A model generated the notes under the pieces. The model saw only the letters and a program-made list of their open reading frames with translations, was not told the DNA's origin and made no database searches. DNA of 64,000 nt from Candidatus Omnitrophota bacterium. Its GTDB lineage: Bacteria; Omnitrophota; Gorgyraeia; Gygaellales; Profunditerraquicolaceae. This document shows positions 1,051 to 49,888 of the stretch, piece after piece. The DNA lies in the NCBI GenBank assembly GCA_041650295.1, contig JBAZLM010000003.1:66933-130932 (forward strand), given 5' to 3'. Both the position numbers and the translations under genes were made by a program. Every line of letters begins with the position of its first letter. Positions within the stretch are counted from its first letter, which is position 1.

Positions 1051-1350
1051 TTATTGACTAGGTCTACCCCGTTAGAGATAGGAAACGCTTCAGACGATTC
1101 TTTAAATAGCGTTTACCCATTCCTGTTTTTAAATATCTTTCTCTAGTAAAAGCATCGTCCTTATCTATACAAGCTTCGTAATATATTAATTCAAAAGGTC
1201 CTCTATTTTTAGTTGATACTACTTTGCCTTCATTATGTTCACTGAAGCGTTTCCGTAGATCAATAGTAGTGCCGGTGTAAAACTTGTTGTCCTTTTTACT
1301 CCTGATTACGTATGTGTATACCATAAGCCGTAATCTCTAACGGGGCTTAC
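1051..1350. mobile_element. Hairpin-repeat element carrying the GIY-YIG gene (IRs ccccgttagagat / atctctaacgggg)
   Basis: A perfect 13-bp inverted repeat flanks the GIY-YIG ORF. The same IR is found at 16692-16756 and 35555-35599 with only a short loop. Confidence 0.55.
1064..1324 (-). CDS. GIY-YIG nuclease family protein (UPF0213/YhbQ-like)
   Basis: 86 aa with the GIY-YIG core YVIRSKKDNKFYTGTTIDLRKRFSEHNEG. The gene lies exactly between the 13-bp inverted repeats at 1067-1079 and 1333-1345. Confidence 0.8.
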   Translation of the reverse strand: MVYTYVIRSKKDNKFYTGTTIDLRKRFSEHNEGKVVSTKNRGPFELIYYEACIDKDDAFTRERYLKTGMGKRYLKNRLKRFLSLTG

Positions 1351-16074: not shown

Positions 16075-16764
16075 ATTTACCACTAATTTTTCCAAAGCAA
16101 AGGCAGGCCTAAGCCTGCCTGTTTTTATCTCAATATCACAATTCAGCAAAAGTTTTAATTTTCTCTTTGCAATTTGACTTTGGATATCCTGTTTTTCCCA
16201 AGCAAAACGCAAACCGCCCAAAATCCTCTCCGGGGCTTGGCCATTTTTAAGCAGCTGGCTTAAGACCTCCAGAGCATAATCAGTTTTTCTCAATTCAATC
16301 TGGCGATTTAAAGCAAATGTATCCGGATTAGTTATCTCTTTAAAACGCATAAGCGATGCATATGAAGAGATCGCCTTAACAAATTCATCTTTATAATCAT
16401 ATTGCGGAAAATCTAAAACTAAAATTAATTGTTTAAATGGCTTTTTAGCATAAGCCAGCAGAAAATCCCGCGATGCATCATCTAGAGAATCTGCTTCTTT
16501 AATTACAACAATTCTTTTTTCACTTTTTAAGGGAATTGCCAGAAAACGTTCTTGGATATCTTTTAATTTTATTTCATTAGCATATAAGATATCCAGGTTA
16601 AAATCCTGCAGATCTTTAGAAAGGGCTTCCTGCTTTATTTTTCTAAGTTGAGTTTCTTTAGCCGCGATATCCTGGCCAATAAGTAAATAAACCCCGTTAG
16701 AAACAGGTTGTCGCAGACAACCACCGGATGTCTCATTTATCTTATTTCTAACGGGGTAAACCAT
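16057..16764 (-). CDS. holA: DNA polymerase III delta subunit (HolA), short
   Basis: VYLLIGQD...RKIKQEAL signature of the clamp-loader delta subunit. The ATG lies 1 nt after the lptE stop. Codons 3-24 are encoded by the hairpin repeat at 16692-16756. Confidence 0.7.
   Translation of the reverse strand: MVYPVRNKINETSGGCLRQPVSNGVYLLIGQDIAAKETQLRKIKQEALSKDLQDFNLDILYANEIKLKDIQERFLAIPLKSEKRIVVIKEADSLDDASRDFLLAYAKKPFKQLILVLDFPQYDYKDEFVKAISSYASLMRFKEITNPDTFALNRQIELRKTDYALEVLSQLLKNGQAPERILGGLRFAWEKQDIQSQIAKRKLKLLLNCDIEIKTGRLRPAFALEKLVVNLCAFV
16101..16126 (+). terminator. Rho-independent terminator for rpsT
   Basis: Stem aggcaggc, loop ctaa, stem gcctgcct, then gttttt. It lies inside the 3' coding end of the convergent holA ORF. 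Confidence 0.6.
16692..16756. repeat. Hairpin repeat copy 2 (ccccgttagaaa ... tttctaacgggg)
   Basis: 12-13-bp perfect inverted repeat with a 41-nt spacer. Same motif as the IRs flanking the GIY-YIG gene. Confidence 0.8.
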
Positions 16765-35501: not shown

Positions 35502-35554
35502 AAAATTTATCTATTGACCTTTGCTATTTTAGAATATAAAATGCTTAACGTCAA

Positions 35555-35599
35555 CCCCGTTAGAAATACAAAATTATAATAGCATAATTTCTAACGGGG
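35555..35599. repeat. Hairpin repeat copy 3 (ccccgttagaaat ... atttctaacgggg)
   Basis: 13-bp perfect inverted repeat with a 19-nt loop, lying between the divergent tRNA-Ala and tRNA-Leu. Confidence 0.8.
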
Positions 35600-35616
35600 T
35601 CAACTTAAAAATCTAT

Positions 35617-36376: not shown

Positions 36377-36982
36377 TTATTTAATATACGCTGCAATTCC
36401 CTGATAGATGCGCTTAGCTACTATTTTATATCCGCGCCCGTTAGGATGAAAGAAATCACTTTTCATCGACGGATTAGTAATAATACGATTTAAAACTGTG
36501 GGTATGAATATTGCCTTTTTTTCAGTAGCTAATTTCTTAAAAACTCCTCGATAATCCATAAAGAACATTCCCGCGCTAATATCTACTAAAGCCACCATCG
36601 CACCCTTTTGCTGGATACGATCAATCATCTTACTTAAATTTTTTACTGTTTCCTCTATAGTTATTTTTTTAAGAAAATCGTTTCCGCAAAATTCTACAAT
36701 CACTAAACGAGGATTCTTACTTAATACATCAGATTCTAATCGTTCTAAAGCCGCAAAAGTGGTATCTCCATCGACCCCCGCATTAATCACCGGCAGCTTC
36801 ACCATTGTCCTTAACACAGTAGGATAATCTTCACCTTGGTTAGCCCCGTAACCAAAAGTAATGCTGTCGCCAAAACAAATAATATTCCCACCCTTAGCAT
36901 CAATATTTTTTATTTCGGGCTTAAAACATCCGGACGATAAAATACTTAAAATTATTAAAATGTACTTAAATTTGTTCTTCAT
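36377..36982 (-). CDS. SGNH/GDSL hydrolase family lipoprotein (arylesterase-like)
   Basis: Lipobox LSSGC. GDSL block ICFGDSIT. A Gly block and a DxxH catalytic triad are present. Confidence 0.75.
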   Translation of the reverse strand: MKNKFKYILIILSILSSGCFKPEIKNIDAKGGNIICFGDSITFGYGANQGEDYPTVLRTMVKLPVINAGVDGDTTFAALERLESDVLSKNPRLVIVEFCGNDFLKKITIEETVKNLSKMIDRIQQKGAMVALVDISAGMFFMDYRGVFKKLATEKKAIFIPTVLNRIITNPSMKSDFFHPNGRGYKIVAKRIYQGIAAYIK

Positions 36983-38000
36983 GTCTTAATCTCAATTGGC
37001 CACAAGCTGCGGCAATATCCTGTCCCCGTTCTTTTCTTAAAGTAACATTAATTCCAGATTTAAATAAATAGTCTCTAAAAGCAATTACATCTGATGTTGG
37101 CGGGGGAGCAATCTTTAATTCCGCAATTGTATTGGCGGGAATTAAGTTCACTTTAGCTAATCGTAAATCTTTTAAAAGAGTAACTAAATTTTGTGCCGCC
37201 GCATGGCTAGCATTAAACCCCTTAATTAAAATATACTCAAAAGTAATCTGGCGATTAGTTTTAGCCGTATATTCATGGCAACATTTAATTAACATCTCTA
37301 AAGGATACTTGCGATTTACGGGCATAATTTGGTCGCGGCTTTTATCATCAGCAGCATGCAAGGATATCGAAAGTTCAATCTGCAAATCTTCCGACTCTAA
37401 TTTCTTTATTGCCGGAATAATTCCACAGGTTGAGATTGTAATACGCCGAGCCCCGATATTAAAAGCTTCTGGTGAATTAATAATCCTAATTGCCGTTAAA
37501 ACATTTTCATAATTATCCAACGGCTCACCGGTTCCCATGAATACAATGTGGGTAAGATCGACATCAACGGTGTTATTTTTCAAGTAAAGAACTTCATCTA
37601 AAATTTCCGCTACCGTTAAATTGCGCTTAAAACCATTTAAACCACTGGCACAAAACTGACAAGCAAATTTACAACCCACTTGCGAAGATAAACAACCAGT
37701 GACCCGTCGAGCAGCCGGAATACTCACCGCTTCAATTAAATTTTTATCCTCTAATTCAAAAAGAAATTTAGTTGTCCCATCTTTAGATTTCTGTAAATCT
37801 GCTAAACTTAAACCTAGAATATTAAACTCTTGGCTTAACCTTGTCCTCAAAGCCACCGGCAGATTACTCATTTTATCAAAATCAACAATCCCCTTTTGAT
37901 AAATCCAATTAAAAATTTGACGGGCATGGTATTTAGGAGCCTGCCAGCTAATTAATTGATCTTGGAGCTTGCTTAAGGATAACTCTTTAATATCCTGCAT
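36966..38000 (-). CDS. rlmN: 23S rRNA/tRNA (adenine-C2)-methyltransferase RlmN (radical SAM)
   Basis: CKFACQFCASG radical-SAM cluster motif and RlmN/Cfr family architecture. Confidence 0.85.
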   Translation of the reverse strand: MQDIKELSLSKLQDQLISWQAPKYHARQIFNWIYQKGIVDFDKMSNLPVALRTRLSQEFNILGLSLADLQKSKDGTTKFLFELEDKNLIEAVSIPAARRVTGCLSSQVGCKFACQFCASGLNGFKRNLTVAEILDEVLYLKNNTVDVDLTHIVFMGTGEPLDNYENVLTAIRIINSPEAFNIGARRITISTCGIIPAIKKLESEDLQIELSISLHAADDKSRDQIMPVNRKYPLEMLIKCCHEYTAKTNRQITFEYILIKGFNASHAAAQNLVTLLKDLRLAKVNLIPANTIAELKIAPPPTSDVIAFRDYLFKSGINVTLRKERGQDIAAACGQLRLRHEEQI

Positions 38001-38008
38001 ATTTAATT

Positions 38009-39511
38009 CTACTTTCTTAATTGTTCTTTATCGATCTTACCCGTACGATTCTTAGGAAGGCTGGTACAAAATTCAAAATAATGCGGAATCTTAAAATTTG
38101 CTAAATTCTGTCTTAAAAAATAACGCAGATCTTCTTCGCTAAGCTGCTTTCCTTCTTTAATTACTAAAAATGCTTTGGGAACCTCTCCTCTTAATTTATC
38201 TGCCACCCCCACTACTGCGGCCTCAGCAATATCCGGATGTTTTTGCAAGCTAGCTTCAACTTCCGGCTCAAAGACAATCTCGCCACCCACCTTAATCATC
38301 TCTTTTTTTCTACCGACAATATAGAGATAGCCGTCCTGATCAAATTTACCTAAATCTCCGGTATGAAACCAACCACCCCGCAAGGTTTCTTTAGTTAATT
38401 TGGCATCTTTAAAATATCCGTCGGTAACCACCCAACTTTTTACCACAACCTCTCCTACCTCTCCGCAAGGTAACTCCTGGTCCGTGCCTGAAAATATTTT
38501 TACCTCTATCCAGGGAGCCGGTCGGCCCACGCTTTCAACGTTTTTTGAACCCATCGGTAAAACTACCGTCGGAGCATTGGTTTCGGTTAAGCCCCAACCA
38601 TTCAAAAGACTAGCCTTGGGACAAAACTGATGAAACCTGCGCAAAGCATCCGGAGAGTTAGATGCCCCAAAGGTAACAATCCAACGCAAACTAGATAAAT
38701 CAAAAGTTTCAAACTCTTTTAATTGTAAAAGCGCATAATACATCGAAGGCACAATCCAGAAAAAATTTATCTTATAATTCTGTACGTTCTTTAAAAATTC
38801 TAACGGGCTAAAACGCTCCATCAAGACAACTTTTAAACCAAAAGAGATCATATTCTGGATATAAATTAACCCTCCTAAATGCGAAAATGGTAAAGCACAA
38901 AGTGCAGTATCTTTGGCACTCAGATCAGAGTTCACAAAAAAAGCCATCGATTTAGGCGGAGCATCTAATTGCGCATAATTAATTAAAACTCCTTTGGGTT
39001 TACCCGTGGTACCAGAAGTATAAAAAATTATGGCATAATCTTTTTCATTAATTTTTACCTGCGGAGCCGAACTTGATCCTTCGGCCAAAAGTTTTTCATA
39101 ACTTAAACTCAAGCTATCCTCTGATTGACAGGAGATAATATTTTTTAATGAAGGTAGTCTGGCCTTAAGATTAGCAAATGAAATATTAGCTTTATGTTTA
39201 GTAATTAGTAACTTAGTTTCAGAATGATCTAGGCAGGAAACAATCTCTTCTTCGGTAAGCATAAAATCTAAAGGCACACTACAAGCCCCCACTGACCAGA
39301 TCGCTAAATAACTAATCACATACTCCGGCCAATTAGGCAAATAGATCGCTACTTTATCCTGCGGCTTAACTCCCAACTTAATTAAACTTTGCGCAAATGA
39401 AAATACTTTATCTTTTAATTGAGAAAAAGAGATCTCATCCTGACGAAAAATAATCGCCGGTTTATTGGCATACTCTTTGGCACAATTTTCTAAAACATTA
39501 ATTACTTTCAC
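38009..39511 (-). CDS. AMP-dependent synthetase / long-chain fatty-acid-CoA ligase family
   Basis: AMP-binding motif YTSGTTGKPKGV and the acyl-CoA synthetase C-terminal domain. GTG start. Confidence 0.8.
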   Translation of the reverse strand: MKVINVLENCAKEYANKPAIIFRQDEISFSQLKDKVFSFAQSLIKLGVKPQDKVAIYLPNWPEYVISYLAIWSVGACSVPLDFMLTEEEIVSCLDHSETKLLITKHKANISFANLKARLPSLKNIISCQSEDSLSLSYEKLLAEGSSSAPQVKINEKDYAIIFYTSGTTGKPKGVLINYAQLDAPPKSMAFFVNSDLSAKDTALCALPFSHLGGLIYIQNMISFGLKVVLMERFSPLEFLKNVQNYKINFFWIVPSMYYALLQLKEFETFDLSSLRWIVTFGASNSPDALRRFHQFCPKASLLNGWGLTETNAPTVVLPMGSKNVESVGRPAPWIEVKIFSGTDQELPCGEVGEVVVKSWVVTDGYFKDAKLTKETLRGGWFHTGDLGKFDQDGYLYIVGRKKEMIKVGGEIVFEPEVEASLQKHPDIAEAAVVGVADKLRGEVPKAFLVIKEGKQLSEEDLRYFLRQNLANFKIPHYFEFCTSLPKNRTGKIDKEQLRK

Positions 39512-39590
39512 CCCGCACCTTCTTCCCTATTTAATTTCTACCCCATCACTTCTTATTCTATCAATACAAAGAAGGTGTGGGGTTCATTTA
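39512..39590 (-). promoter_or_regulatory. Conserved hairpin leader (copy 1) pairing the Shine-Dalgarno sequence of the downstream GTG-start gene
   Basis: On the mRNA strand, ccccacaccttctt ... gggaagaaggtgcggg|GTG. Stem of 12-14 bp. A paralogous element lies at 48085-48157. Confidence 0.5.
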
Positions 39591-41075
39591 AAACCCATAC
39601 CAGTAATTAACTAGAGGCTTGCCCTCAGCGGATTGGTCCACAATTATATTTTTAAGACGAATATACTCTAAGAATCCTTCTTTACCCAATTCTTTACCAA
39701 ATCCACTCTGCTTAAATCCACCGTAAGGAAGTTGATTATAAAACATGCCATAAGTATTCACCCAAACTGTCCCCGCATTTAATTTTTTAGATAGATCATG
39801 AGCTAAATACAGATCTTTGCTCCAAATACAAGCCGCCAGCCCAAAATCTACTGCATTAGCTAATGCAGTAGCTTCATCTGAACCAGAAAACTTATGAATC
39901 AAAACTACCGGACCAAAGACCTCTTCCTTAAATATATGTGAATGCGCAGAAACATCAATTAAAACTGTCGGCTCAAAATAATAACCATTCTTTAACTCCG
40001 AGTTCTCCGGAATCTTGCCGCCACAAAGCACTTTACCACCTTCAGCTTTAGCTTTATCAATATAAGCAATAACTTTTTTACGTTGAGCATCGCTAATTAA
40101 GGGGCCCATTTGCGTTTCAAAATCATCCGCTAAACCCAACTTAATTTGCTTAGCCTTACTAACAAAACTTTTAATAAAATCATCATAGATACCCTCTTGC
40201 ACAAAAATACGCGACATCGCCGTGCACATCTGCCCTTGGTTTAAAAAAATTGAAGTTAACGCACTATTAACCGCCACCTCTAAATCAACGTCACTAAAGA
40301 TTAAACTCGCCGATTTACCACCCAGCTCTAAAGTTAACTTCTTAACATTTTTAGAAGAATACTGTAAAATTTGTTTTCCGGTTTCATTACTACCCGTAAA
40401 GGACACCATATCTACTCGTTTGTCCGTACAAAGCTGCTCGCCAATCTTTGGACCACTGCCATTAACTAAATTAAATACTCCAGCGGGTACTCCGGCAAGA
40501 TGTATAATTTTAGCTAATTCATAAGCAGTCAGCGGGGTAAGGCTAGAAGATTTTAAAATAACCGTATTGCCCGCCGCTAATGCGGAAGCCAATTTCCAAC
40601 AAGCGATCAAAAGCGGATAATTCCAGGGAACAATTAAAACCACTACCCCCATCGGCTCAGGGACTACTTTGGCTTTGGCATCTTCGGAAAGATTGAATTC
40701 TGTCTCATCTAAATAATTAATAAAATTCTCCGCCATAAATTCAAAAGTTTTAGCGCTGGAAGGAACGTCCATAAAAGTAGTTTCTTTAATCGGCTTACCG
40801 GTGTTCTGCATCTCTAATTGCGCAAGAGTAGCAGCATTATCTAAAATTCCTTGCGCAATTTTAAAAATAAATTCTTTGCGTTGCGCTAGCGAAAACTGCT
40901 GCCAAGGTCCCTGATCAAAAGCTGCTCTAGCGCTAGAAAGCGCCAACTCTACTTCTTTTTCACCGGCTAAAGAAACTTCCGCAATTACTTTTCCAGTTGA
41001 AGGATTAATAATATTCTGCTTCTCAACAGTTTCAATAAATTGTCCGTTAATATACAGTGGGCATTTTAAATTCAT
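39588..41075 (-). CDS. NAD(P)-dependent aldehyde dehydrogenase
   Basis: 495 aa. ALDH motifs ELGGKSA and the catalytic Cys block QGQMCTA. Confidence 0.85.
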   Translation of the reverse strand: MNLKCPLYINGQFIETVEKQNIINPSTGKVIAEVSLAGEKEVELALSSARAAFDQGPWQQFSLAQRKEFIFKIAQGILDNAATLAQLEMQNTGKPIKETTFMDVPSSAKTFEFMAENFINYLDETEFNLSEDAKAKVVPEPMGVVVLIVPWNYPLLIACWKLASALAAGNTVILKSSSLTPLTAYELAKIIHLAGVPAGVFNLVNGSGPKIGEQLCTDKRVDMVSFTGSNETGKQILQYSSKNVKKLTLELGGKSASLIFSDVDLEVAVNSALTSIFLNQGQMCTAMSRIFVQEGIYDDFIKSFVSKAKQIKLGLADDFETQMGPLISDAQRKKVIAYIDKAKAEGGKVLCGGKIPENSELKNGYYFEPTVLIDVSAHSHIFKEEVFGPVVLIHKFSGSDEATALANAVDFGLAACIWSKDLYLAHDLSKKLNAGTVWVNTYGMFYNQLPYGGFKQSGFGKELGKEGFLEYIRLKNIIVDQSAEGKPLVNYWYGF

Positions 41076-42067
41076 CTGATATTGACCTCTCTAAATAAGG
41101 CAAACAACCGGTTAAAAGGCACATACCACTTAGAAAGCTGACCTAATTGTCCAGTTAACTTCATCTTACCTTGAGTAACCGCAACAAATGAATCAAGTTT
41201 ACCTAAAAATACCTGCTCCCAAACTACTGCTGGAGCCGAAATTACAAAAGGAGCATCGCTATCTGTTTCTAACTTTACAATTTTTCCATCTTCAAAATTA
41301 AATTTAAAAACACTATCGCTACCGTCGAGTTTAATCGCTAACTTTACAGTTAAACCTAGCTCTTTGCCTTTACGCGCAATAAATTCATCCTGATTAACTA
41401 AATCGACAATTGCCTGGATATGTGGTTGACTAAACATAACATGCGCTAGATCATTGCGTTTCAAATCAGCCTTAAGTGCTGTATCCAAATCATCTAAAAT
41501 ATCTTTATCAAACAATCTAGCAACGGCAGCACTTTTTACCGCCTCCTCTAATGCTTCAGTAACACTTAAAGCATCTTCAAATTTATCCGCAATCGCCACC
41601 GTTCCGTGATTTTTTAAAACTACTAAATTATTAGTTTTAAGCGCAGCAATTACTGGAACAGGATCAGTAACCGTAGGAGTATCTTGAGGGATAATTGGGA
41701 TTTCACCTAAATAAAATTTAGTTTCAAAACTCATTGCTTTCAAATTTTTAGTTACCGCAAAATAACCATTAATTAATGGAGGATGACAATGAATAACTAC
41801 TTTGGCAGAAAAATTTTTATAAACTAAACTGTGCAAAGGCAACTCTGAACTAGGATTTAATATGCCTTCAAGCTTACCGCTAGCTAAATTTACCTTAACA
41901 ATATCACTTTCTTTTAATTGGCCCAAGAATGTTCCAGTGCCAGTAATCAAAATATTATCGTTATCAAGACGAGCGCTGAGATTCCCGGATTTAGCTACCG
42001 CTAAACCGGCAGCATAAAGTCTTTTACCCACCCCGATAATCTCTTGTTTTAATTGCTGCTCTAACAT
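41072..42067 (-). CDS. Class II aldolase/adducin domain (MtnB-like) fused to SCP2 sterol-carrier domain
   Basis: N-terminal aldolase-II fold (VVIHCHPP). C-terminal SCP2-like segment (KMKLTGQLGQLSKW). Adjacent to mtnA and a PNP-family gene. Confidence 0.6.
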   Translation of the reverse strand: MLEQQLKQEIIGVGKRLYAAGLAVAKSGNLSARLDNDNILITGTGTFLGQLKESDIVKVNLASGKLEGILNPSSELPLHSLVYKNFSAKVVIHCHPPLINGYFAVTKNLKAMSFETKFYLGEIPIIPQDTPTVTDPVPVIAALKTNNLVVLKNHGTVAIADKFEDALSVTEALEEAVKSAAVARLFDKDILDDLDTALKADLKRNDLAHVMFSQPHIQAIVDLVNQDEFIARKGKELGLTVKLAIKLDGSDSVFKFNFEDGKIVKLETDSDAPFVISAPAVVWEQVFLGKLDSFVAVTQGKMKLTGQLGQLSKWYVPFNRLFALFREVNIR

Positions 42068-43000
42068 TTATACTTCTCCACTAAAAGTGCCTAAATAAAT
42101 ATGTTTAGTAATTAATGCATTCGGCGTAACATCAAAAGCCGGATAATAAGCTTTAACTTCTTTAGGCGCTAAACGCAACCCTTGATAAATTTTTAATTCA
42201 TCATCCGGCCGAATCTCAATCACAATCTCTTTACCAGTTTTTAATTTTGAAGCCGGCGGACAAATAACATAAAAAGGAATCTTAAAGTATTTAGCCACCA
42301 CCGCAATTTGATATGTTCCAATTTTATTGGCGATATCACCATTTAAAGTTAAATGATCTGCTCCCACGATAACCTTAGTTACTTTACCTAGCGATAATAA
42401 ATACGCCACCATATTATCAGTAATAATTGTAACCTCAAAACCGGCGCGCATGATTTCCCAAGCAGTAAGCCGCGAACCTTGCAAATAAGGACGAGTTTCC
42501 GTAACATAAAAACTGATTTTTTTGCCTTGCTCCTTAGCAAACTGTGCAATTAACGGCATTAAGCCACTCACATTGCAATGCGTCAAGATTACATCACCGT
42601 CTTTAAGTAAATCGGCAGTAGCTTTAGCCTGCTGGATTCTTTTACCTTTAAGCATCTCTAAAAATCCCAAGATACTTTTTTCTAACGGTGCTCCACTTTT
42701 AACCATCCCTAAAACCATATCGGTTAAGAATTTAAATGATAATGTGGGACGCGTGGCATTAATCGCCTGAGCAACTTTAAATAAATCTTTATTCTGGCGT
42801 TTACTTAAAATAAAAGTATACATTACTAAAAGCACTTGGCCCACGGCACGAGTTTTCATCTGTTTAATCGCGCCACAAGCCTCCAGATAATTCTTAGCCT
42901 TAAGATAAACTAATTTTTGGGGCAATTGAGTTTCATCAAGGATATAAATAACATTACCCTTAAGTTGAATCGGCCAAAATAATGGAGAAAATTTCATCAT
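42068..43000 (-). CDS. mtnA: S-methyl-5-thioribose-1-phosphate isomerase (eIF-2B alpha/beta/delta family)
   Basis: GADHLTLNGDIANKIGTYQIAVVAKYFKIPFYVICP matches the MtnA/e2B core. Confidence 0.75.
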   Translation of the reverse strand: MMKFSPLFWPIQLKGNVIYILDETQLPQKLVYLKAKNYLEACGAIKQMKTRAVGQVLLVMYTFILSKRQNKDLFKVAQAINATRPTLSFKFLTDMVLGMVKSGAPLEKSILGFLEMLKGKRIQQAKATADLLKDGDVILTHCNVSGLMPLIAQFAKEQGKKISFYVTETRPYLQGSRLTAWEIMRAGFEVTIITDNMVAYLLSLGKVTKVIVGADHLTLNGDIANKIGTYQIAVVAKYFKIPFYVICPPASKLKTGKEIVIEIRPDDELKIYQGLRLAPKEVKAYYPAFDVTPNALITKHIYLGTFSGEV

Positions 43001-43752
43001 AATTTATTTTTTTCTAATCTTTTAACTAATTCTAAGGCAATTTTAATTACATTACTTTCCGCCATATAATAAAGTGGATTCATAAAACCCATCTCGCCAG
43101 TCACCACATTATCACTAATCGCTAAAATTGAACCTGCCTTAATATTATAGGTCTGACAGATCGTAAGCAGCGTGGAAGAAACCATATCTACGGCTTGAGC
43201 TCCCTCTTTGCGCTTGGCTTCGACAATTTCACGTGTCTCACGCAATAAAGCATCAGTGGTCCAGGCTTTACCACGGTGCACGGTTAAGCCCATCTCTTTA
43301 GCAATATTAAAAAGAAGGTCCGATATATTTTTATCACTGCTCGTTTTAAAATCTTTATCCACATAATAAGGAGTTACCCCGTCGCCACGGATCACTTCAT
43401 CCACCACAAATAAATCACCCACTTTAATATTTTCATCAAGTGCTCCACCGCTACCTACGCGAATAATATTTTGAATTCCTGCATTACACATTACCTCAGT
43501 AGTAATGGAAGTATCTGTAGAAAATCTTCCACCATTAATTCCAGTAACTTTGATTCCTTCGTAAGTTCCCGTGTACATGGTGTATTCCATAAATGAAAAA
43601 TTGCGCACCGGATTTTCAATTTTTTTCATTAATACATCCAAGCGGTCACGCGGTCCGGGAACAATCGCATACTTACCTACGTCCTGTGGTCTAAGCTGCA
43701 CCATATCAGTTAGATCTTTTCCGGTTAAATGAACATTCTTTTGCATCTGCAT
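42997..43752 (-). CDS. Nucleoside phosphorylase family 1 (PNP/MTA phosphorylase-like)
   Basis: PNP_UDP_1 fold (VGSGGALDENIKVGDLFVVDE ...). Its position next to mtnA/mtnB suggests an MTA phosphorylase role. Confidence 0.6.
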   Translation of the reverse strand: MQMQKNVHLTGKDLTDMVQLRPQDVGKYAIVPGPRDRLDVLMKKIENPVRNFSFMEYTMYTGTYEGIKVTGINGGRFSTDTSITTEVMCNAGIQNIIRVGSGGALDENIKVGDLFVVDEVIRGDGVTPYYVDKDFKTSSDKNISDLLFNIAKEMGLTVHRGKAWTTDALLRETREIVEAKRKEGAQAVDMVSSTLLTICQTYNIKAGSILAISDNVVTGEMGFMNPLYYMAESNVIKIALELVKRLEKNKL

Positions 43753-43771
43753 TTAATTTCTCCTCCTAGTA

Positions 43772-44101
43772 TTAAGCCCGATACATAATTACATTTGCTT
43801 TTTCTAAAGTAATTAATCCTTCCTTAACCATAGTATCCAGCTGTGGAATAAACTGATTAATCTTCTCTTCACTATCCACAATCTCCACAATTATCGGCAA
43901 ATCTTCCGAAAGTCGTAATAAATTGGCAGTGTGCATATGACTTTTGCAGCCAAATCCCATAAATCCTTTAATGGCAGTGGCTCCGGCTAACCCGTTTTTC
44001 TTAGCCAGAAAAACAATCTCTTCATAAAGCGGTTTACCATTCCACTTGTCTGCTTCACCAATAAAAACTCTTAAAAGTTTACCATCGGCTGGAATTTTCA
44101 T
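43772..44101 (-). CDS. DUF190 (PII-like) protein, CrcB-associated
   Basis: 109 aa. COG1993-like sequence, translationally coupled to crcB. Confidence 0.6.
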   Translation of the reverse strand: MKIPADGKLLRVFIGEADKWNGKPLYEEIVFLAKKNGLAGATAIKGFMGFGCKSHMHTANLLRLSEDLPIIVEIVDSEEKINQFIPQLDTMVKEGLITLEKANVIMYRA

Positions 44102-44472
44102 ATTATCTCTCCAATTAAACTACCAATTCTAAATAATATAAACCCCAAAATTACACTAGCAAAAATATTTGTAAAAGCACGTAAAGCCTGTCCATTTCTC
44201 ACTAAACTATCGGTTTCAAAAATCAATGTTGAAAATGTGGTAAATGCCCCACAAAAACCAATCATCAATAATATACGCAAATCAGGTCCAAGCATAAATT
44301 TCTTTTCTGAAATGGTAGCTAAAATTCCTAAAATAAAACAACCACTAATATTGACAATCAACGTACCATAAGGAAAACTTGCACCCATAAATTTATAAAC
44401 CAGTCCACCTAATAAATATCTAGCTACTGTCCCCGCCGCTCCACCAATAATTAAATTTAAAAATTTTATCAT
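44098..44472 (-). CDS. crcB: Fluoride ion channel CrcB (Fluc)
   Basis: 124 aa, four TM helices. GFCGAFTTFS signature. Confidence 0.85.
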   Translation of the reverse strand: MIKFLNLIIGGAAGTVARYLLGGLVYKFMGASFPYGTLIVNISGCFILGILATISEKKFMLGPDLRILLMIGFCGAFTTFSTLIFETDSLVRNGQALRAFTNIFASVILGFILFRIGSLIGEII

Positions 44473-44474
44473 AT

Positions 44475-45404
44475 TTAAAAATCCAACATTCTAGCTAAAT
44501 TACCACCTAAAATATTCTTCTTATCCTCAGCGGATATCTCTAAATCATTCACGGCTTTAATGCCGCCGGTCACTTCTTTTTTTGCCGGATAATCCGAACC
44601 CCATAAAATATGCCGTGGCCCCATTAACTCAAGTGCCAGTAAAAAATTCGCTTTGGTCGTATCGCCACTAGTATCGACATAAATATTTTTAAAATAATCT
44701 GAAGGCGCACCCTGCAGGTCTTTAACAAAATTCAGCGTGCGCAACATCTGATAAGTAGTATCGAAACGTTGCTTAAGATAACAGATTGCTCCGCCAAAAT
44801 GCCCAAAAATAAATTTTACTTTGGGATACTGACGTAAAATATCCGACATTAAAAGCTTACCAATAGAAATTGTCGTATCAAAAACATATTCAATCGCCGG
44901 TGTAAGCAACGGATCCTTAACTCGTTCATAGCCAATCGGATTAACAATTTGCGCATGTACAAAGATCGGAATATTTTTAGCTTCGGCTTCCTTATAGATA
45001 GGCCAAAACATTTTATCATCTAAATAAATGCTATTATAACTTGAGGCCAAAGAAATTGCCTTAAACCCTAGTTCATTAGTGGCGCGCTTTAACTCCTCCA
45101 GCATATCGATAGAATTATCTACGGGCAAAACTGCCGCGCCAATAAATCTTTTGGGGTAAGCTTTTAAAATTTGAGCCACGTTATCATTATAAATGTGGGC
45201 AACTTGACTAATACTACCAATCTTTAAATGTGCATCTGAGGTAGGATAACTTAAAACCGCTTGATCAATTTGTGCCGCATCCATTACCGCTAGTTGACTT
45301 TGAATATCACCCCAACCCTTATGAAAAAAATGGGCATTGGTAATTATCTCATCTGGCAGCCAATGGCTATGTGCATCAATTAACATTAATAGTTTATCCC
45401 GCAA
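44475..45404 (-). CDS. Amidohydrolase-2 family protein (ACMSD-like metal-dependent hydrolase)
   Basis: N-terminal HSHWLP metal-binding motif. TIM-barrel amidohydrolase_2 pattern (FGHFGG, WGSDYP). Confidence 0.65.
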   Translation of the reverse strand: MRDKLLMLIDAHSHWLPDEIITNAHFFHKGWGDIQSQLAVMDAAQIDQAVLSYPTSDAHLKIGSISQVAHIYNDNVAQILKAYPKRFIGAAVLPVDNSIDMLEELKRATNELGFKAISLASSYNSIYLDDKMFWPIYKEAEAKNIPIFVHAQIVNPIGYERVKDPLLTPAIEYVFDTTISIGKLLMSDILRQYPKVKFIFGHFGGAICYLKQRFDTTYQMLRTLNFVKDLQGAPSDYFKNIYVDTSGDTTKANFLLALELMGPRHILWGSDYPAKKEVTGGIKAVNDLEISAEDKKNILGGNLARMLDF

Positions 45405-45414
45405 GATAAATAAA

Positions 45415-45834
45415 TCATTGGCGGGACTCCGTACTTTTTAGGATGCGCTCAATCATCTCTTTTTCATAAAGCGCTTTAATCTCTTCTAAACCTTTTTTTC
45501 CTAATTCTTTAGTAATTACTTTTTCAATCGCATCCAACTTTATCTCGGAGAAAATAAAATCCGGATTAATCTTTTTATCCTGATCTCTTAAATCCGAACA
45601 AGCCTTCTCTTTACTCTCGATATATCTTTGGAAATCATCAATACGTTTCTGAATAGCATCTTTTTCATGAGGAAGATAGGTTCCCAAAAGCTCACTCTCC
45701 ATCTCCTCTAGAATATCTTGATCAATATCGATTTGCGTAAACTTTCGTTCGAATTTATCAAAAGCTTCTTTGGCTATTTTATAGAGCCAAATAAAATAGC
45801 GTTTCTTTAAATTTTTAAGATCCTGATTATTCAT
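45415..45834 (-). CDS. Hypothetical protein
   Basis: 139-aa acidic, helical ORF in an operon with the downstream genes. No family recognised. Confidence 0.4.
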   Translation of the reverse strand: MNNQDLKNLKKRYFIWLYKIAKEAFDKFERKFTQIDIDQDILEEMESELLGTYLPHEKDAIQKRIDDFQRYIESKEKACSDLRDQDKKINPDFIFSEIKLDAIEKVITKELGKKGLEEIKALYEKEMIERILKSTESRQ

Positions 45835-45851
45835 CTTACCTCCTACTGTTT

Positions 45852-46631
45852 TTACTTTCCCGGATGCTGCTGCTTAAACGGAATTACCGGAGCAGTCCAA
45901 GGTGTCTGTTGATTGATTACAGAAATCTCCAAGGGACAAACGTTAGCCGGCACGGTTAAAGCAAAACGCACTGCATCCTCTATAGCCTGAGTTCCCATTA
46001 AACGGGAAGTATCGCCGGTTATATCTTTTAATTTACCGGTTAAGTCCGTATCGGTAACTCCGGGCAAAATTGAGGTTACTTTGATTCCATGATCGCGTAA
46101 CTCCCAAAATAAACCTTTAGAGAATGCCCGCAAGCCAACTTTAAGCGAACTGTAAACAATAAAATTTCTGGGAACTGGATCGACTAGAGTAGAACCAGAA
46201 ACAATATTAATAATTGCCCCATACTTTTGTTTCATCATATCATTAATCACTAAACGAATTAAGCGCACATAACCTAAATAATTGGTATAAGCTAATTTCT
46301 CAAAATCCTCAATCGGTTGTTCATTGAAGGGAAACTGTGAAGAGACACCCGCGCAATTAATTAAAATATCTACTTTGCCAAATTTCGCTTTGGCTTTATT
46401 TACTAAATTCTCTAAATCCTCTAATTTAGTAACGTCACAACCCACCGGTAAAACCTCAACTTTATATTGTTTGGCTAGTTCAGCAGCAGTTTCTTTTAAC
46501 GGACCTTCTCCTCTAGCAGCCACCACCAAATTAACTCCAAGGCTAGCTGCGGTTGCGGCCATGGCTTTACCAATACCTCGACTGGCTCCCGTAACAATCG
46601 CTACTTTTCCTTTTAAGTCGGTACTCATCAA
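45852..46631 (-). CDS. SDR family oxidoreductase (3-oxoacyl-ACP/ketoreductase-like)
   Basis: TGASRGIG cofactor motif. YSSLK catalytic dyad region. Confidence 0.8.
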   Translation of the reverse strand: MMSTDLKGKVAIVTGASRGIGKAMAATAASLGVNLVVAARGEGPLKETAAELAKQYKVEVLPVGCDVTKLEDLENLVNKAKAKFGKVDILINCAGVSSQFPFNEQPIEDFEKLAYTNYLGYVRLIRLVINDMMKQKYGAIINIVSGSTLVDPVPRNFIVYSSLKVGLRAFSKGLFWELRDHGIKVTSILPGVTDTDLTGKLKDITGDTSRLMGTQAIEDAVRFALTVPANVCPLEISVINQQTPWTAPVIPFKQQHPGK

Positions 46632-46637
46632 TGCCTC

Positions 46638-47075
46638 CTATTTTACTTCAGACTCAATAACTTTTTTAAAAATTAATAAATTATCTTTAGAATGTTTATT
46701 AATAAATCCTTCGACCTGCTCATCATTAAACTTAGCCTTGGCATCCATTTTAAAATGCTGAATCCAAGTTAACTCTATCCCTTCAGGTTTTTGTGTATAA
46801 AGCCAGATAATCTTCATAAATTCGAAAGGAAATTTAGGATCATGACGCTCTGAATAAGTAAAAAAGTTTTCTTTATATAATAATCTCCAAGAGATCCAGG
46901 ATTTATCCTCATCATCAGTAAGCCGAAAAGTTATTTTGTTAGCTTCCTTCTTGACGATCTCGGCTTTTTTATATTCTGCACCAAATAACTGCGTCCAGCG
47001 CGGGATATCATTAGAAATTTTAAAAACTAAATCGTAAGGCGCATTAATCACCACTGAATTACAAGTATGTCCCAT
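46638..47075 (-). CDS. SRPBCC (Bet v1-like) polyketide cyclase/dehydrase-family protein
   Basis: 145 aa with an SRPBCC-like composition. GGGAGGG Shine-Dalgarno sequence. Sits in a KS/CLF/ACP cluster. Confidence 0.55.
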   Translation of the reverse strand: MGHTCNSVVINAPYDLVFKISNDIPRWTQLFGAEYKKAEIVKKEANKITFRLTDDEDKSWISWRLLYKENFFTYSERHDPKFPFEFMKIIWLYTQKPEGIELTWIQHFKMDAKAKFNDEQVEGFINKHSKDNLLIFKKVIESEVK

Positions 47076-47098
47076 ACTACCCTCCCAATGTTAGATTT

Positions 47099-47270
47099 CC
47101 GTCTTTTACTTCCGGCGCTCAAAGATTTTCGCCGTGTGCTGCGGCTTACGTCTCGTTACGGCTTTCTTCCTTACGCTAGATGGACACCGCCTTCACTCGA
47201 CGTAATTCCTTGCACACTATCAAAAAATTAGAAAGCCGAAAACTTTGAACGCGCCTCCAGCAAAAGCCGG
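47099..47270 (-). ncRNA. GC-rich structured non-coding element, copy B (5' leader of the 46638-47075 operon)
   Basis: The reverse complement is about 85% identical to 20605-20781. No ORF. It lies between two minus-strand genes, immediately upstream of the Shine-Dalgarno sequence of the SRPBCC gene. Confidence 0.45.
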
Positions 47271-47283
47271 AAATTTATAATAT

Positions 47284-48084
47284 TTAGTCTAAAAGAGCAA
47301 CCACTCTCGCCCAAGCTGCGCCAGTATTCTTTATGCGAATCGGAAAACAACTCACTTTAAATCCAAAATCCGGCAATTTCTCTAAATTAGCTAAACGCTC
47401 AATATGAATAAATTCTTTTTTACGACCGTAAAAATGCGCCGGATAAAACTTAGAGGCATCTTTTGTCTCTAAAAATTCTTTAAGCATAAAGCGATACGGT
47501 CGGTCAATGCCCATCGTATCTACACCAAAGATCTTTATACCTTTATTTAAAAGATACTCAATTGCGGACGGATCAACTCCCGGGTAATCGGAAAAATATT
47601 TAGGGCCCCCATAAAGCTTATCAGCACCAGTATGTAAAAATACAATATCCAAAGGCTTAAGTTGATAATTAATCTTCTTTAAAGCCTCCTCGATATCTGA
47701 GGACTTAATCACTTCATTGGGTTTCTTATGACGAAAATCTAACTTTACACCATTTTGATAACAATATTCTAAGGGAATCTCGTCGGCGGTTTTAGCCGCG
47801 CGGCCCTCTGATTGAGAACCATAATGAAAGGAATAATCTAAATGCGTGCCAATATGCACCGGCGCATGCACAATCTCTAACGACAGAAATTCCTCATCAG
47901 GCAAATCAGTTGGCTTAATAATGCGCTGACCCAGTAAATGCTTAACCTTGCCTAATAAAGTTTTACCCATAATCACGCGGTTAAATTTCTTAACCCCAGC
48001 TTTATGGGTAATTCTTTCGATATCTACTTTGTGTACTTCAAAAGCCTTTTCATCAATCGGCAGGCTTAAGTCAATTATTCTCAC
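47284..48084 (-). CDS. Cyclase family protein (PF04199; kynurenine-formamidase-like)
   Basis: HAPVHIGTHLDYSFHY metal-binding motif. GTG start preceded by the conserved hairpin leader. Confidence 0.7.
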   Translation of the reverse strand: MRIIDLSLPIDEKAFEVHKVDIERITHKAGVKKFNRVIMGKTLLGKVKHLLGQRIIKPTDLPDEEFLSLEIVHAPVHIGTHLDYSFHYGSQSEGRAAKTADEIPLEYCYQNGVKLDFRHKKPNEVIKSSDIEEALKKINYQLKPLDIVFLHTGADKLYGGPKYFSDYPGVDPSAIEYLLNKGIKIFGVDTMGIDRPYRFMLKEFLETKDASKFYPAHFYGRKKEFIHIERLANLEKLPDFGFKVSCFPIRIKNTGAAWARVVALLD

Positions 48085-48157
48085 CCCGCACCTTCTTTCC
48101 TATTTATCTTTACTCCCCCACTTTCTAATATTAAATTTTTAGAAGGTGCGGGACTCA
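48085..48157 (-). promoter_or_regulatory. Conserved hairpin leader (copy 2) pairing the Shine-Dalgarno sequence of the downstream GTG-start gene
   Basis: On the mRNA strand, cccgcaccttct ... ggaaagaaggtgcgggGTGAGA. It shares stem and loop blocks with 39512-39590. Confidence 0.5.
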
Positions 48158-48391
48158 TTAGGCAATTTTTGATTGAATATTGTTAACGATATCATTAATT
48201 GTCGAATTCTTAGTAATCTCTTTAGGGCTTAACTTTACTCCAAATGATTTTTCTAAAGCAATCACCGACTCCACCATCTCAGTAGAATCCACACCAATGC
48301 TATTAATCAAAGTGACATCATCTTTTAACTCTTCAATCTTTACTTTCAGCAAATTACTTAAAACTTCTTTTATTTTTATTTTAATATCCAT
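48158..48391 (-). CDS. Acyl carrier protein
   Basis: 77 aa. Phosphopantetheine attachment site IGVDSTEMVE on an ACP fold. Confidence 0.8.
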   Translation of the reverse strand: MDIKIKIKEVLSNLLKVKIEELKDDVTLINSIGVDSTEMVESVIALEKSFGVKLSPKEITKNSTINDIVNNIQSKIA

Positions 48392-48408
48392 CCACGCCTC
48401 CTATTTAC

Positions 48409-49869
48409 CTATATTTGCACTTCACCTTTTGTAGCTGCTGCTTCCCACTTACCTACTCCATCCATCACATCCTTAAAACAAAGTTTAGCCAACGGATCAA
48501 AATCACTTTCCATGATACGATTAATTCTTCCAGGTTTTGAGAAAAATTCTCGCATACACCAAGAGCCTAGTCGACCCAGATCTTCAGTAGTTAAATGATC
48601 TGTAGGAATGACTGGATGCAGAAAATCCCACTGGCTAAAATCTACTTTTTTCGGATCAATCCAATTTTTCTTTAAAGCAATTCTCCACATCGGTGAATTC
48701 GGAGCAGGAGTAACATACCCTACCCAAAGAATATCTGGATCAACCATATCAGTAAACTCAAAACGCTGTTTTATAATCTCTTCAGTATCATAATCAAAAC
48801 CCATCATGATGTCGGCGACAATAGCAATATCTTGTTTACGTAAGATCGCAATCGTCTTTTTAATCTGTTCGATAGTAGTACCTTTGGCGATTCTTTTTAG
48901 TTCTAATTGTGTAGTCACCTCAATGCCGAAAACCCCCATAAACAAACCCGCCTCTTTCATTAAAGGTAAAATAGATTCGCAATTGACCCAATCCACGGCG
49001 CGGCCCAAAGCCACCCATTTAGTTTCAATTTTCTTAGCTAACTTTAATTCACAGAATTTTTTAATGCGAGCTGGGTCAACAATAAAATTGTCGTCCTGGA
49101 TCACCACCACTTTAACTCCATATTTATTTTGTAAAAGCTCTAATTCTTCGATCACTCTTTCCGGACTTTTGGCACGCCATTTTAAGAAATCTGAAGGATG
49201 GCGTGGATCAAACTGATCCCATTCATAACAAAAAGTACAAGCCGAAGGACAACCGCGAGAGGTAACCATATCCACAAACGGCTTCCAATAAGTATGCCCA
49301 GAATATTTATCCATCGGAAATAAATCATACGCCGGTAATGGCAGTTTATCTAAATCTGTCATCAATGGTTTATGTGGGCCCATAACAATTTCACCATTAA
49401 TCCGAGAAGTTACTCCTGCGACATCCTTAAATGATTTGTTTTTATCAATCGCTTCAATTAAATCACCAAATGATTCTTCCTCACCCATGACAATAAAATC
49501 AACTTCGGGAATCTCTTCTAATGTGGGTACAGGCATCGCTGAATACCACAAACCACCTAAAATTATTTTCACCTTTGGTAATACTTTTTTAATCCCAATG
49601 GCGGCATCTTTAAAATGGCGTAATACTCCGTATCCACCGTAACCGTGTAATTGCTCGCCCATCACCACGATATCAGGATTAATCGCTTTGACCTTAGTAA
49701 TTAAATCTTGCATCGGGATCTGATCGGCTTTCGCGTCAATCACAGCCACATCTTTGTATCCTTTTTCCCGAATGTAAGCAGCCCAATGCGCATACAATTG
49801 ATTGGGTGAACGATGAATTCCGTGTGTTGCCCAAGCACCTACTTTTGGCATAACAAATAAAATTTTCAT
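48409..49869 (-). CDS. B12-binding domain-containing radical SAM protein
   Basis: N-terminal cobalamin-binding Rossmann-like domain. CPSACTFCYEW radical SAM cluster motif. Confidence 0.8.
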   Translation of the reverse strand: MKILFVMPKVGAWATHGIHRSPNQLYAHWAAYIREKGYKDVAVIDAKADQIPMQDLITKVKAINPDIVVMGEQLHGYGGYGVLRHFKDAAIGIKKVLPKVKIILGGLWYSAMPVPTLEEIPEVDFIVMGEEESFGDLIEAIDKNKSFKDVAGVTSRINGEIVMGPHKPLMTDLDKLPLPAYDLFPMDKYSGHTYWKPFVDMVTSRGCPSACTFCYEWDQFDPRHPSDFLKWRAKSPERVIEELELLQNKYGVKVVVIQDDNFIVDPARIKKFCELKLAKKIETKWVALGRAVDWVNCESILPLMKEAGLFMGVFGIEVTTQLELKRIAKGTTIEQIKKTIAILRKQDIAIVADIMMGFDYDTEEIIKQRFEFTDMVDPDILWVGYVTPAPNSPMWRIALKKNWIDPKKVDFSQWDFLHPVIPTDHLTTEDLGRLGSWCMREFFSKPGRINRIMESDFDPLAKLCFKDVMDGVGKWEAAATKGEVQI

Positions 49870-49888
49870 GACTCCTCCATAATAATGA

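Follow-up and report, generated by a model that had tools for sequence, protein, structure and literature searches.

The stretch of DNA analyzed here (the window) comprises 64,000 nucleotides of a Candidatus Omnitrophota genome (assembly GCA_041650295.1, contig JBAZLM010000003.1, positions 66,933 to 130,932) and contains two similar hairpins on the minus strand, each wedged between two genes of an operon, the downstream one of which starts with GTG. The first hairpin (copy A) separates the gene of an aldehyde dehydrogenase from that of an acyl-CoA synthetase-type AMP-binding enzyme, and the second (copy B) separates the gene of an acyl carrier protein (ACP) from that of a PF04199 cyclase; Pfam searches confirm all four genes. 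A first-pass annotation had placed both hairpins upstream of these GTG starts and correctly named the two downstream genes, and re-reading of the sequence finds the hairpins where it put them. That annotation viewed them as a conserved leader controlling translation. We are confident that they are instead independent insertions of an element that targets start codons and resembles MITEs (miniature inverted-repeat transposable elements). The features of the two loci, including the terminal inverted repeats (TIRs), the target-site duplications (TSDs) and the short open reading frames (mini-ORFs) that begin at the old start codons, are listed below in window coordinates, together with the state of the same junctions in four orthologous operons (L116 to L119).

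39588-41075, minus: aldehyde dehydrogenase gene, upstream of copy A; stop TAA at 39590-39588
39583..39586, minus: 5' TSD copy of copy A, TGAA; with A39587 it makes the original ATG (39587-39585)
39561..39587, minus: mini-ORF of copy A from the old ATG, ATG AAC CCC ACA CCT TCT TTG TAT TGA (direct reading)
39511..39582, minus: copy A, short (MITE-like) element, 72 nt from repeat to repeat; covariance score 76 bits; junction empty in L116 and L118
39570..39582, minus: left TIR of copy A, the 5' arm of the hairpin, CCCCACACCTTCT
between the arms, minus: loop of copy A, 46 nt
39541..39553, minus: internal degenerate third repeat copy in copy A, AGAAGTGATGGGG (direct reading)
39511..39523, minus: right TIR of copy A, the 3' arm, AGAAGGTGCGGGG, carrying AAGGTG
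39507..39510, minus: 3' TSD copy of copy A, TGAA; G39511 plus TG makes the new GTG
38009-39511, minus: AMP-binding enzyme gene, downstream of copy A (Pfam)
48158-48391, minus: ACP gene, upstream of copy B; stop TAA at 48160-48158
48154..48157, minus: 5' TSD copy of copy B, TGAG; the old ATG (48158-48156) overlaps the ACP stop TAA (TAATG)
48081..48158, minus: mini-ORF of copy B, MSPAPSKNLILESGGVKINRKEGAG*, 25 codons plus stop, from the old ATG to a TGA that overlaps the new GTG (GTGA, -4 spacing)
48084..48153, minus: copy B, short element, 70 nt from repeat to repeat; covariance score 72 bits; junction empty in L117 and L118, filled in L119
48141..48153, minus: left TIR of copy B, the 5' arm, TCCCGCACCTTCT
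between the arms, minus: loop of copy B, 44 nt
48084..48096, minus: right TIR of copy B, the 3' arm, AGAAGGTGCGGGG, with AAGGTG
48080..48083, minus: 3' TSD copy of copy B, TGAG; new GTG at 48084-48082
47284-48084, minus: PF04199 cyclase gene, downstream of copy B (Pfam)

An alignment of the two copies spans 121 columns, with 81% identity, and takes in the loop block that the first-pass annotation had quoted. The 13-mer of the arm, when up to 2 mismatches are allowed, occurs four times in the window, exactly at the four arms, where 0.61 occurrences are expected by chance; the claim of a paralogous, non-chance element thus holds. The predicted folds pair the arms, with free energies of -24.9 kcal/mol for copy A (z = -3.6 against shuffled sequences) and -22.0 kcal/mol for copy B (z = -2.4), and in both the Shine-Dalgarno (SD)-like AAGGTG and the start codon are sequestered by the stem, as had been proposed. 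The claimed stem is not perfect, however: there is one A·C mismatch in copy A, and the outermost pair of copy B is U·G. In copy A as in copy B, the final G of the 3' arm is the first base of the GTG (39511-39509 in copy A). The 8-codon mini-ORF of copy A spans the 5' arm and stops within the loop (39563-39561), and its internal repeat AGAAGTGATGGGG, comparable copies of which are present in other members of the family such as L065, could, judging by its sequence, serve as an alternative pairing partner of the 5' arm. The mini-ORF of copy B has the canonical form and crosses the whole element, an architecture common to 37 of 70 other copies and to the full-length ORFs of the GIY-YIG family described below.

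A covariance model (R1) built from 82 copies of the element scored copy A at 76 bits and copy B at 72 bits, and the next-best match in the 64 kb reached 17 bits. This weaker match (13081-13124, minus strand), a CCCCGTAAAA…TTTTATACGGGG hairpin followed by TGAA, lies in frame within uvrC without a duplication of the flanks and is most likely coincidental; the matches at 16686-16762 and 35549-35605 belong to a second repeat family in the window. Searching the whole window against Rfam at the gathering score yielded two tRNAs and nothing for the hairpins, and a search of the locus at E <= 10 returned microRNA noise only.

Empty and filled junctions in orthologous operons

The four orthologous operon copies, the cyclases of which are 82-91% identical to that of the window, share a conserved order of genes, namely, two ketosynthases, a B12-binding radical SAM enzyme, ACP and the cyclase, followed, after intervening genes, by genes of a methylthioadenosine (MTA) phosphorylase-like protein, an MtnA-like protein, an aldolase, the aldehyde dehydrogenase and the AMP ligase. 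The ACP-cyclase junction is filled in the window and in L119 and lacks the element in L117 (…ACCAAATGAAGATAGTTGAT; …CCAAATGAAGATAGTT) and L118 (…GTAAAATGAAAATAATCGAC; …GTAAAATGAAAATAATC), where the two genes join by the usual ATGA stop/start overlap, with the empty junction reading …AAATGAAG…. In L116, the same junction holds a scrambled remnant, …CAGGTGTAGGGGAAGGTTAAGCC… (9966-10001), and the cyclase starts with TTG. The junction between the aldehyde dehydrogenase and AMP ligase genes is filled in the window, lacks the element in L116 and L118 (GGNTTTTAAATGAATGT…, TTTTAAATGAATGT…; …TAAATGAAT…), and in L117 carries an old copy that has lost the end of its right repeat (GAAGGTGTCAAATGAAT; 20627-20713) and is followed by an ATG start. 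In the empty junctions, the sequence …ATGAA… is present only once. L117 has an extra copy at the start of the gene of a major facilitator superfamily (MFS) transporter, and this site is empty in the window. The element was therefore inserted, or precisely lost, with base-exact boundaries in otherwise collinear operons, which establishes its mobility, and the decayed copies in L116 and L117 show how old insertions erode.

The genes around the two hairpins (36966-54088, minus strand) belong, together with L116 to L119, to a conserved Omnitrophota gene cluster that encodes an ApbA-like reductase, two ketosynthases, the B12-binding radical SAM enzyme, ACP, the PF04199 cyclase, an MFS transporter, a short-chain dehydrogenase/reductase, an amidohydrolase, CrcB, an MTA-phosphorylase-like protein, an IF-2B/MtnA-like isomerase, a class II aldolase, the aldehyde dehydrogenase and the AMP ligase. 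Conservation of this cluster is unusually high; the cyclase has more than 1,200 homologues, the top 120 of which are at least 81% identical to it, and it is 100% identical to a protein (P0001) of an Omnitrophota metagenome-assembled genome (MAG).

A dispersed family with a defined target site

A search for further copies had been suggested in the first-pass annotation, and a scan of one genome per species with the pattern CACCTTCT-N30-60-AAGAAGGTGNGGGG, for which we estimate about 8 chance matches, identified at least 115 loci, almost all in Candidatus Omnitrophota. Among 80 listed titles of these matches, 66 are Omnitrophota or Omnitrophica MAGs and 5 are MAGs labeled Planctomycetia or Planctomycetales with genuine copies; the remainder are of the chance type and lack the CCCC end. 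There are several genomes with many loci each, and two or three copies often share one 8-kb locus.

Position and flanks were evaluated for 104 copies with good arms from the scanned loci, in both orientations. The last base of the right repeat and the two bases that follow form GTG in 91 of these copies, and in 84 of them this GTG opens a long ORF, so that the unrelated genes preceded by the element number at least 84 and come from dozens of Omnitrophota genomes. The 4-nt flanks on the left and on the right are identical in 77 of the 104 copies, usually TGAA, and the base that precedes the left flank is A in 77 and G in 16, the typical arrangement being …ATGAA/CCCC…GGGG/TGAA…. Among 21 copies with a 3' flank other than TGAA, 10 carry the identical variant at the 5' end (TGAG in four, including copy B, TGGA in two, TTAA in two, TGAT and TAAA); none of 20,000 permutations reached 10 such matches, the maximum being 5. 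The flanks are a 4-bp target-site duplication. A 2-bp duplication combined with repeat termini of the form A…T was considered and disfavored, given that the TGAG/TGAG and TGAT/TGAT pairs point to 4 bp (6 of the 8 copies with a variant fourth base match). Known palindromes of the repetitive extragenic palindrome (REP) type mobilized by REP-associated tyrosine transposases, or of the IS200-IS605 type, which are short (20-40 bp), lack a target duplication and have a conserved tetranucleotide tag or a fixed target at just one end, do not fit an element of 60-85 bp with a long loop and both flanks duplicated and covarying. The attC sites and the end structures of IS200/IS605 and IS3-type insertion sequences were likewise rejected, because the flanks repeat each other directly, not as complements, and both covary.

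The TIRs are 13 bp long, CCCCGCACCTTCT … AGAAGGTGCGGGG, with the left consensus CCCC(G/A)CACCTTCT. The element joins the gene after the A of ATG (A/TGAA), leaving the old ATG and any upstream ribosome-binding site (RBS) at its 5' edge, whereas its right repeat places AAGGTG 4 nt upstream of the new GTG. When the element and one duplicate are excised from copy A in silico, TAA-ATG-AAA-GTA-ATT… results, with an ordinary ATG start. Insertion at the start codon thus accounts for the three features noted in the first-pass annotation, namely, the two GTG starts, the shared SD sequence and the conservation beyond the stem; the starts and the SD are brought in by the inserted element and are not host features under the control of a hairpin. 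The TIRs, the target duplication and the empty and filled orthologous junctions together identify the hairpins as insertions of a MITE-like element.

Across the copies, the loops are free to vary in sequence and in length. A common internal sequence and pattern of deletion, of which the loop …AAATATTCAACTATTAAAGCCATACGGTTTGATGAATTAAATAAGAAAG… is an example, is shared by copies at more than 20 different genes from several genomes. Tandem and nested copies were also observed. In the protein P0230, which reads MNPAPSPRRLANRRRCGMNPAPSP…EEGAG, a short copy immediately precedes a full-length element, and several loci (L057, 4207-4339; L005, L100, L112) contain a right repeat directly followed by GTGAA and a new left repeat, an arrangement that, from the sequence, fits re-insertion into a rebuilt GTGAA start.

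Full-length elements encode a minimal GIY-YIG protein

A full-length version of the element was first recognized at L081, among solitary repeats, most of the others being degraded or tandem copies. This unit of 302 nt has the same ends and the same duplication as the short copies and encloses a GIY-YIG ORF with one frameshift; the repaired protein has more than 120 homologues, the named sources of which are all Omnitrophota with the exception of one member of Sedimentisphaerales. The full-length units (L081, L120-L128 and L129-L141) are 297-324 bp long, have the structure ATGAA-CCCCGCACCTTCT…AGAAGGTGCGGGG-TGA, and separate operon genes, for example, gcvPA from gcvPB, dCMP deaminase from nrdR (in three genomes) and the adaptor of a resistance-nodulation-division system from its pump, or precede purN. 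Their ORFs of 303-321 nt start at a codon that overlaps or closely follows the upstream stop and end with a stop that overlaps the GTG of the downstream gene.

The full-length units encode proteins of 90-100 aa; across the homologues, the proteins consist of a single domain of 85-110 aa, many being exactly 100 aa long, and read in frame through both repeats, starting with MNPAPS (ATG-AA-CCCCGCACCTTCT) and ending with (K/R)EGAG (AGAAGGTGCGGGG-TGA). Among 120 listed homologues, 46 have an MNPAPS-type N-terminus, 57 an EGAG-type C-terminus, and 32 both. The family protein P0122 matches the GIY-YIG domain (PF01541) with E = 1.3e-16, the alignment columns Y15, Y26, G28, R36, H40 and E60 are invariant and include residues that agree with the catalytic Tyr, Tyr, Arg, His and Glu of GIY-YIG enzymes, and the closest solved structures are those of UPF0213 proteins (PDB 1zg2 and 1ywl; E ~1e-7), followed by eukaryotic SLX1.

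The ends of the short copies (CTTCTwwAwATTCAA … TTGAATAAGAAAGAAGG) are those of the full-length units, which argues that the short copies are internal-deletion derivatives and that the mini-ORF is what remains of the nuclease ORF. The short elements thus appear to derive from the ~300-bp element, the direction of derivation being deduced from these shared ends.

The narrower of two GIY-YIG alignments (A4) was used to scan metagenomes, the other (A3) being too diverse. In 71 of the 80 GIY-YIG loci found, the gene lies between perfect inverted repeats, at least 11 bp long, that span 285-350 bp; we estimate about 0.001 such repeats per locus by chance. These loci display 27 different repeat 12-mers that shift with the divergence of the protein: the repeat ACCCCGCACCTTCT goes with at least 66% protein identity, ATCCCGCACCTTCT/TTTT rebuilds ATG rather than GTG, and other variants include TCCCTCACCTTTT, CCCCCCACCACTTT and CCCCCACACCAATTG. 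In 33 metagenomic loci, the downstream gene begins at the end of the right repeat. No longer element with the same repeats, and no DDE partner, was found in a search of the flanking DNA, ~0.9 Mb from Omnitrophota that surrounds 115 copies; the sole widely spaced pair of repeats, in L038 (4267/6551), falls within mnmE and folC and is due to chance.

A second family in the window and related elements elsewhere

The window contains a second family of the same design, with one full-length and two short members:

1064..1345, minus: full-length second-family element with an 86-aa GIY-YIG gene (1064-1324); 42% identity to P0122 (tblastn), PF01541 E = 3.5e-18
16692..16756, minus: short second-family hairpin, repeat CCCCGTTAGAAA, flanks TTTA/TTTA, at the lptE-holA junction
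35555..35599, plus: short second-family hairpin, repeat CCCCGTTAGAAA, flanks TCAA/TCAA, in the gap between tRNA-Ala and tRNA-Leu

Perfect inverted repeats of 13 bp, CCCCGTTAGAGAT, delimit the GIY-YIG gene (1333-1345 and 1067-1079). The flanks of this full-length copy, TAAG and TAGA, do not match exactly. The pairing of each protein lineage with repeats and short derivatives of its own is the main reason to regard the nuclease, rather than an unseen transposase, as the putative mobility factor.

Analogous hairpins, with the repeat (C)CCCCCACCTTCT…AGAAGGTGGGGG(G), are present in genomes of the candidate phyla radiation, namely, in L022, from the Patescibacteria genome MAG122 (6408-6489, 7152-7630 and 7644-7724), and in L073, from Sungiibacteriota. 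The right end in L022 yields ATG (GGGGGATGA), and on the minus strand of this locus a GIY-YIG gene (MFYVYILKSLKNSRLYIGS…) lies between CCCCCCACTTTCTT repeats, with the frame broken after about 20 recognizable GIY-YIG residues. The element type may therefore extend beyond Omnitrophota.

The mini-ORF and translational coupling

In 50 of the 62 sites with an identifiable upstream ORF, the stop codon of that ORF lies within 5 nt of the old start or overlaps it, and 23 of these are ATGA overlaps; because upstream stops abut the old starts, the element resides in translationally coupled junctions. At junctions with an ATGA overlap, where its TGA serves as the upstream stop, this stop is included in the duplication. 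In 48 of 70 copies, the old start shares its frame with the TGA that overlaps the new GTG (G-TGA, -4 spacing), and in 37 of the 70 this frame is open across the entire element; mini-ORFs in short copies range from 8 to 26 codons. With length measured by a regular expression that extends 5 nt outward from CACCTTCT and from AGAAGGTG, the values seen most often step by 3 nt (70, 73, 76 and 79), and 55 of 82 copies have lengths of 1 mod 3. The A/T-rich loops contain 60 stop codons in the mini-ORF frame versus 188 and 185 in the other two frames, and the orientation of the loop relative to the gene is identical in 82 of 82 copies despite the symmetry of the repeats. The preservation of frame, of 3-nt length steps and of a fixed orientation argues for translational coupling, a putative mechanism that we consider well supported by these sequence statistics.

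Two mechanisms of coupling, RNA unfolding and termination-reinitiation, have been reviewed (PMC12548453). At the hairpins described here, the closed stem would block de novo initiation at the GTG, whereas ribosomes arriving from the upstream cistron or initiating at the old ATG would translate the mini-ORF and melt the stem; following termination at or before the GTGA overlap, the host gene would be translated via termination-reinitiation, RNA unfolding or both. Under this scheme, insertion would be nearly neutral, and the acyl-CoA synthetase and cyclase genes would stay coupled to the genes upstream of them.

Other features of the window

Two further repeat-rich regions were noted. A 2,388-aa ORF (25813-32979, minus strand) contains degenerate 45-nt (15-aa) periodic repeats and repeats of ~225 nt (families D1-D12) and probably encodes a giant beta-helix or adhesin-like surface protein. 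A cluster at 10396-10501, which bears no relation to the GIY-YIG repeats, lies in the gap that separates two minus-strand ORFs (9277-10425 and 10506-11999). It combines perfect palindromes, CCTACGCAAGTTTTT/AAAAACTTGCGTAGG at 10434-10466 and GGAAATATTTGCC/GGCAAATATTTCC at 10472-10501, and a direct repeat of 25 nt (10396-10420 and 10461-10485).

Discussion

The explanation that we regard as best overall, and as probably correct, is that copies A and B are MITE-like insertions derived from a GIY-YIG-encoding parent element and rendered nearly neutral by translational coupling. The first-pass annotation had offered instead a translational riboregulator or RNA thermometer dedicated to the acyl-CoA synthetase and cyclase genes, and any such cis-regulatory RNA, including a riboswitch-like leader, now appears highly improbable. 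The hairpin is predicted to be stable and to bury the SD and the start codon, the internal repeat of copy A offers its 5' arm a potential alternative partner, and single copies could have been co-opted for regulation; nevertheless, the same element precedes at least 84 functionally unrelated genes, its loops vary freely, it is flanked by a target-site duplication and matches no Rfam family at gathering or relaxed thresholds, and its absence from the same junctions in orthologous operons with cyclases 84-91% identical to that of the window already largely refutes a dedicated regulatory role. A generic intrinsic terminator, or a REP-type palindrome that stabilizes or terminates the upstream transcript, is scarcely credible: although a GC-rich stem that follows directly on a stop codon and is repeated in the genome invites such a reading, the stem is followed by GUGAAAG in copy A and GUGAGAA in copy B, with no U-run on its 3' side, it keeps a fixed orientation and register with respect to the start codon downstream, its loop, at 44-46 nt, is long, and REPs lack target-site duplications. 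Ubiquity beside unrelated genes, which the first-pass annotation would have taken as the mark of a generic terminator, is indeed what was found, and we conclude that it marks a mobile element instead. Of its further suggestion, a terminator and reinitiation device coupling adjacent genes, the terminator falls with the missing U-run, whereas reinitiation and coupling come close to what the comparative data suggest.

Two other explanations concern how the short copies arose and what moved them. They could be remnants, shortened in place by internal deletion of full-length insertions, that never moved as such; their ends equal those of full-length units, and orthologous sites do harbor decayed copies (the remnant in L116 and, in L117, the copy with a degraded right end). 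We consider this very unlikely, given that the same internal sequence is present at more than 20 genes in several genomes, which independent deletions would not yield. Somewhat less remote, albeit still unlikely, is a true MITE moved by a conventional transposase, for instance, a DDE enzyme of an insertion sequence (IS) family with CC-ended repeats and 4-5-bp duplications, with the GIY-YIG ORF a passenger or an independent selfish gene. A 4-bp duplication combined with TIRs is the classic DDE signature, no GIY-YIG transposase is known, and the search for a longer partner was confined to flanking DNA. Against these points stand the failure to find a longer element with the same repeats in the ~0.9 Mb around the 115 copies, where the L038 pair is a chance match, the in-frame reading of the GIY-YIG ORF through both repeats, the covariation of 27 repeat variants with the divergence of the GIY-YIG protein, and the second protein lineage in the window, with its own repeat and short derivatives.

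For the GIY-YIG-encoding parent, a stronger proposal can be made, which we put forward tentatively, as plausible, if slightly less likely than not: the ~300-bp units may be autonomous transposable elements, the sole protein of which is a minimal Slx1-like GIY-YIG nuclease, and thus may represent an unrecognized class of prokaryotic transposons. The GIY-YIG protein would mobilize the repeats specific to its own lineage and, in trans, the short copies. An element of this kind would have no promoter, RBS or start codon of its own and would insert at the ATGA/TGAA junction of operon genes, borrowing the host start codon for the nuclease ORF and handing a rebuilt SD and GTG back to the host gene through the -4 overlap; the MITEs that it spawns would keep the same coupling frame.

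Several points weigh against these interpretations. We know of no record of transposition or nuclease activity for this GIY-YIG protein family, and a ~90-aa GIY-YIG domain without a DNA-binding module would be, to our knowledge, unprecedented as a transposase; moreover, GIY-YIG homing and restriction enzymes (I-TevI, Eco29kI) leave 2-nt overhangs, versus the 4-nt stagger implied here. The duplication itself could formally be read as 2 bp with A…T termini, the evidence for 4 bp coming from a small sample, and the search pattern fixed most of both arms, so that the invariance of the stem among the sampled copies is in part a matter of ascertainment. The coupling step is drawn from sequence statistics, part of the frame bias and of the depletion of stops could be inherited from a few in-frame founders instead of being due to ongoing selection, and the mini-ORF of copy A, with 8 codons and outside the GTGA frame, indicates that the overlap is not obligatory.

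By the usual criteria for MITEs, the short elements have 13-bp TIRs, a target duplication and precise empty sites, and are small, dispersed and without a transposase of their own. Bacterial MITEs such as Correia, RUP, ERIC and RPE are small, non-coding, multicopy elements with TIRs and a target duplication that are polymorphic among strains and co-transcribed with neighboring genes, the expression of which their hairpins can affect; they derive from IS elements with DDE transposases and are mostly intergenic, whereas RPEs lie in frame inside genes. The Omnitrophota element differs from these in its base-exact placement at start codons in a single orientation, in rebuilding the start and the SD, and in its sole identifiable parent, the gene of which specifies a GIY-YIG nuclease and not a known transposase.

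The closest functional analogue are the MIRUs (mycobacterial interspersed repetitive units), with which copy B and 37 of 70 other copies share the arrangement of mini-ORF and GTGA. MIRUs are head-to-tail tandem units known only from mycobacteria and not known to have TIRs or a hairpin, and we know of no protein-coding parent for them. They are short, apparently mobile repeats at start codons inside operons, with an internal ORF coupled to the downstream gene at -4 spacing, an arrangement considered to render the insertion harmless (PMC12548453). The Omnitrophota element, in contrast, is a single palindromic unit with a 4-bp duplication that contributes an SD and a GTG of its own and has a full-length counterpart, which encodes a GIY-YIG protein; no tandem direct-repeat structure was found in the Omnitrophota units and no sequence relationship to MIRUs, so that the analogy is functional only.

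With homing GIY-YIG endonucleases (phage seg/mob and I-TevI-like genes), the Omnitrophota genes have in common that they are selfish genes wedged between host genes, with a conserved catalytic motif. Homing enzymes carry extra DNA-binding modules, NUMOD and others (PMC1564403), and spread to one cognate site without TIRs or a target duplication, whereas the Omnitrophota proteins are bare domains of ~90 aa, bounded by repeats and present at many unrelated sites. By sequence, the closest family is that of the stand-alone Slx1-like/UPF0213 (YhbQ-type) proteins, which are likewise minimal and single-domain. Dunin-Horkawicz et al. (2006; PMC1564403) describe this stand-alone prokaryotic Slx1-like lineage as ancestral and as inherited, in essence, vertically; the Omnitrophota genes differ in being multicopy, repeat-bounded, located in operon junctions and accompanied by short derivatives. 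In a literature search that left subscription journals mostly outside its reach, we found no description of Omnitrophota MITEs or of GIY-YIG genes between terminal inverted repeats.

Conclusions

For genome annotation, the findings mean that dozens of genes per Omnitrophota genome start at an element-derived GTG after this hairpin, that gene callers, RBS models and operon predictions will mis-handle such starts, and that 100-aa proteins of the element are currently annotated as ordinary genes for "GIY-YIG nuclease family proteins". The 70-nt unit is, in addition, a ready-made portable translational-coupling cassette for engineering. More broadly, the element is a clean natural case of a transposon that is harmless by design, landing on the start codon, duplicating the stop/start overlap, and returning an SD and a start to the host gene; as such, it is an independent parallel to the mycobacterial MIRUs and a tractable model for their mobility. 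If the GIY-YIG protein indeed mobilizes these elements, it would constitute a sixth catalytic class of prokaryotic transposases, the ~300-bp unit would be the smallest autonomous element known, less than half the size of IS200, and the "vertically inherited" stand-alone Slx1-like family would be at least partly selfish.

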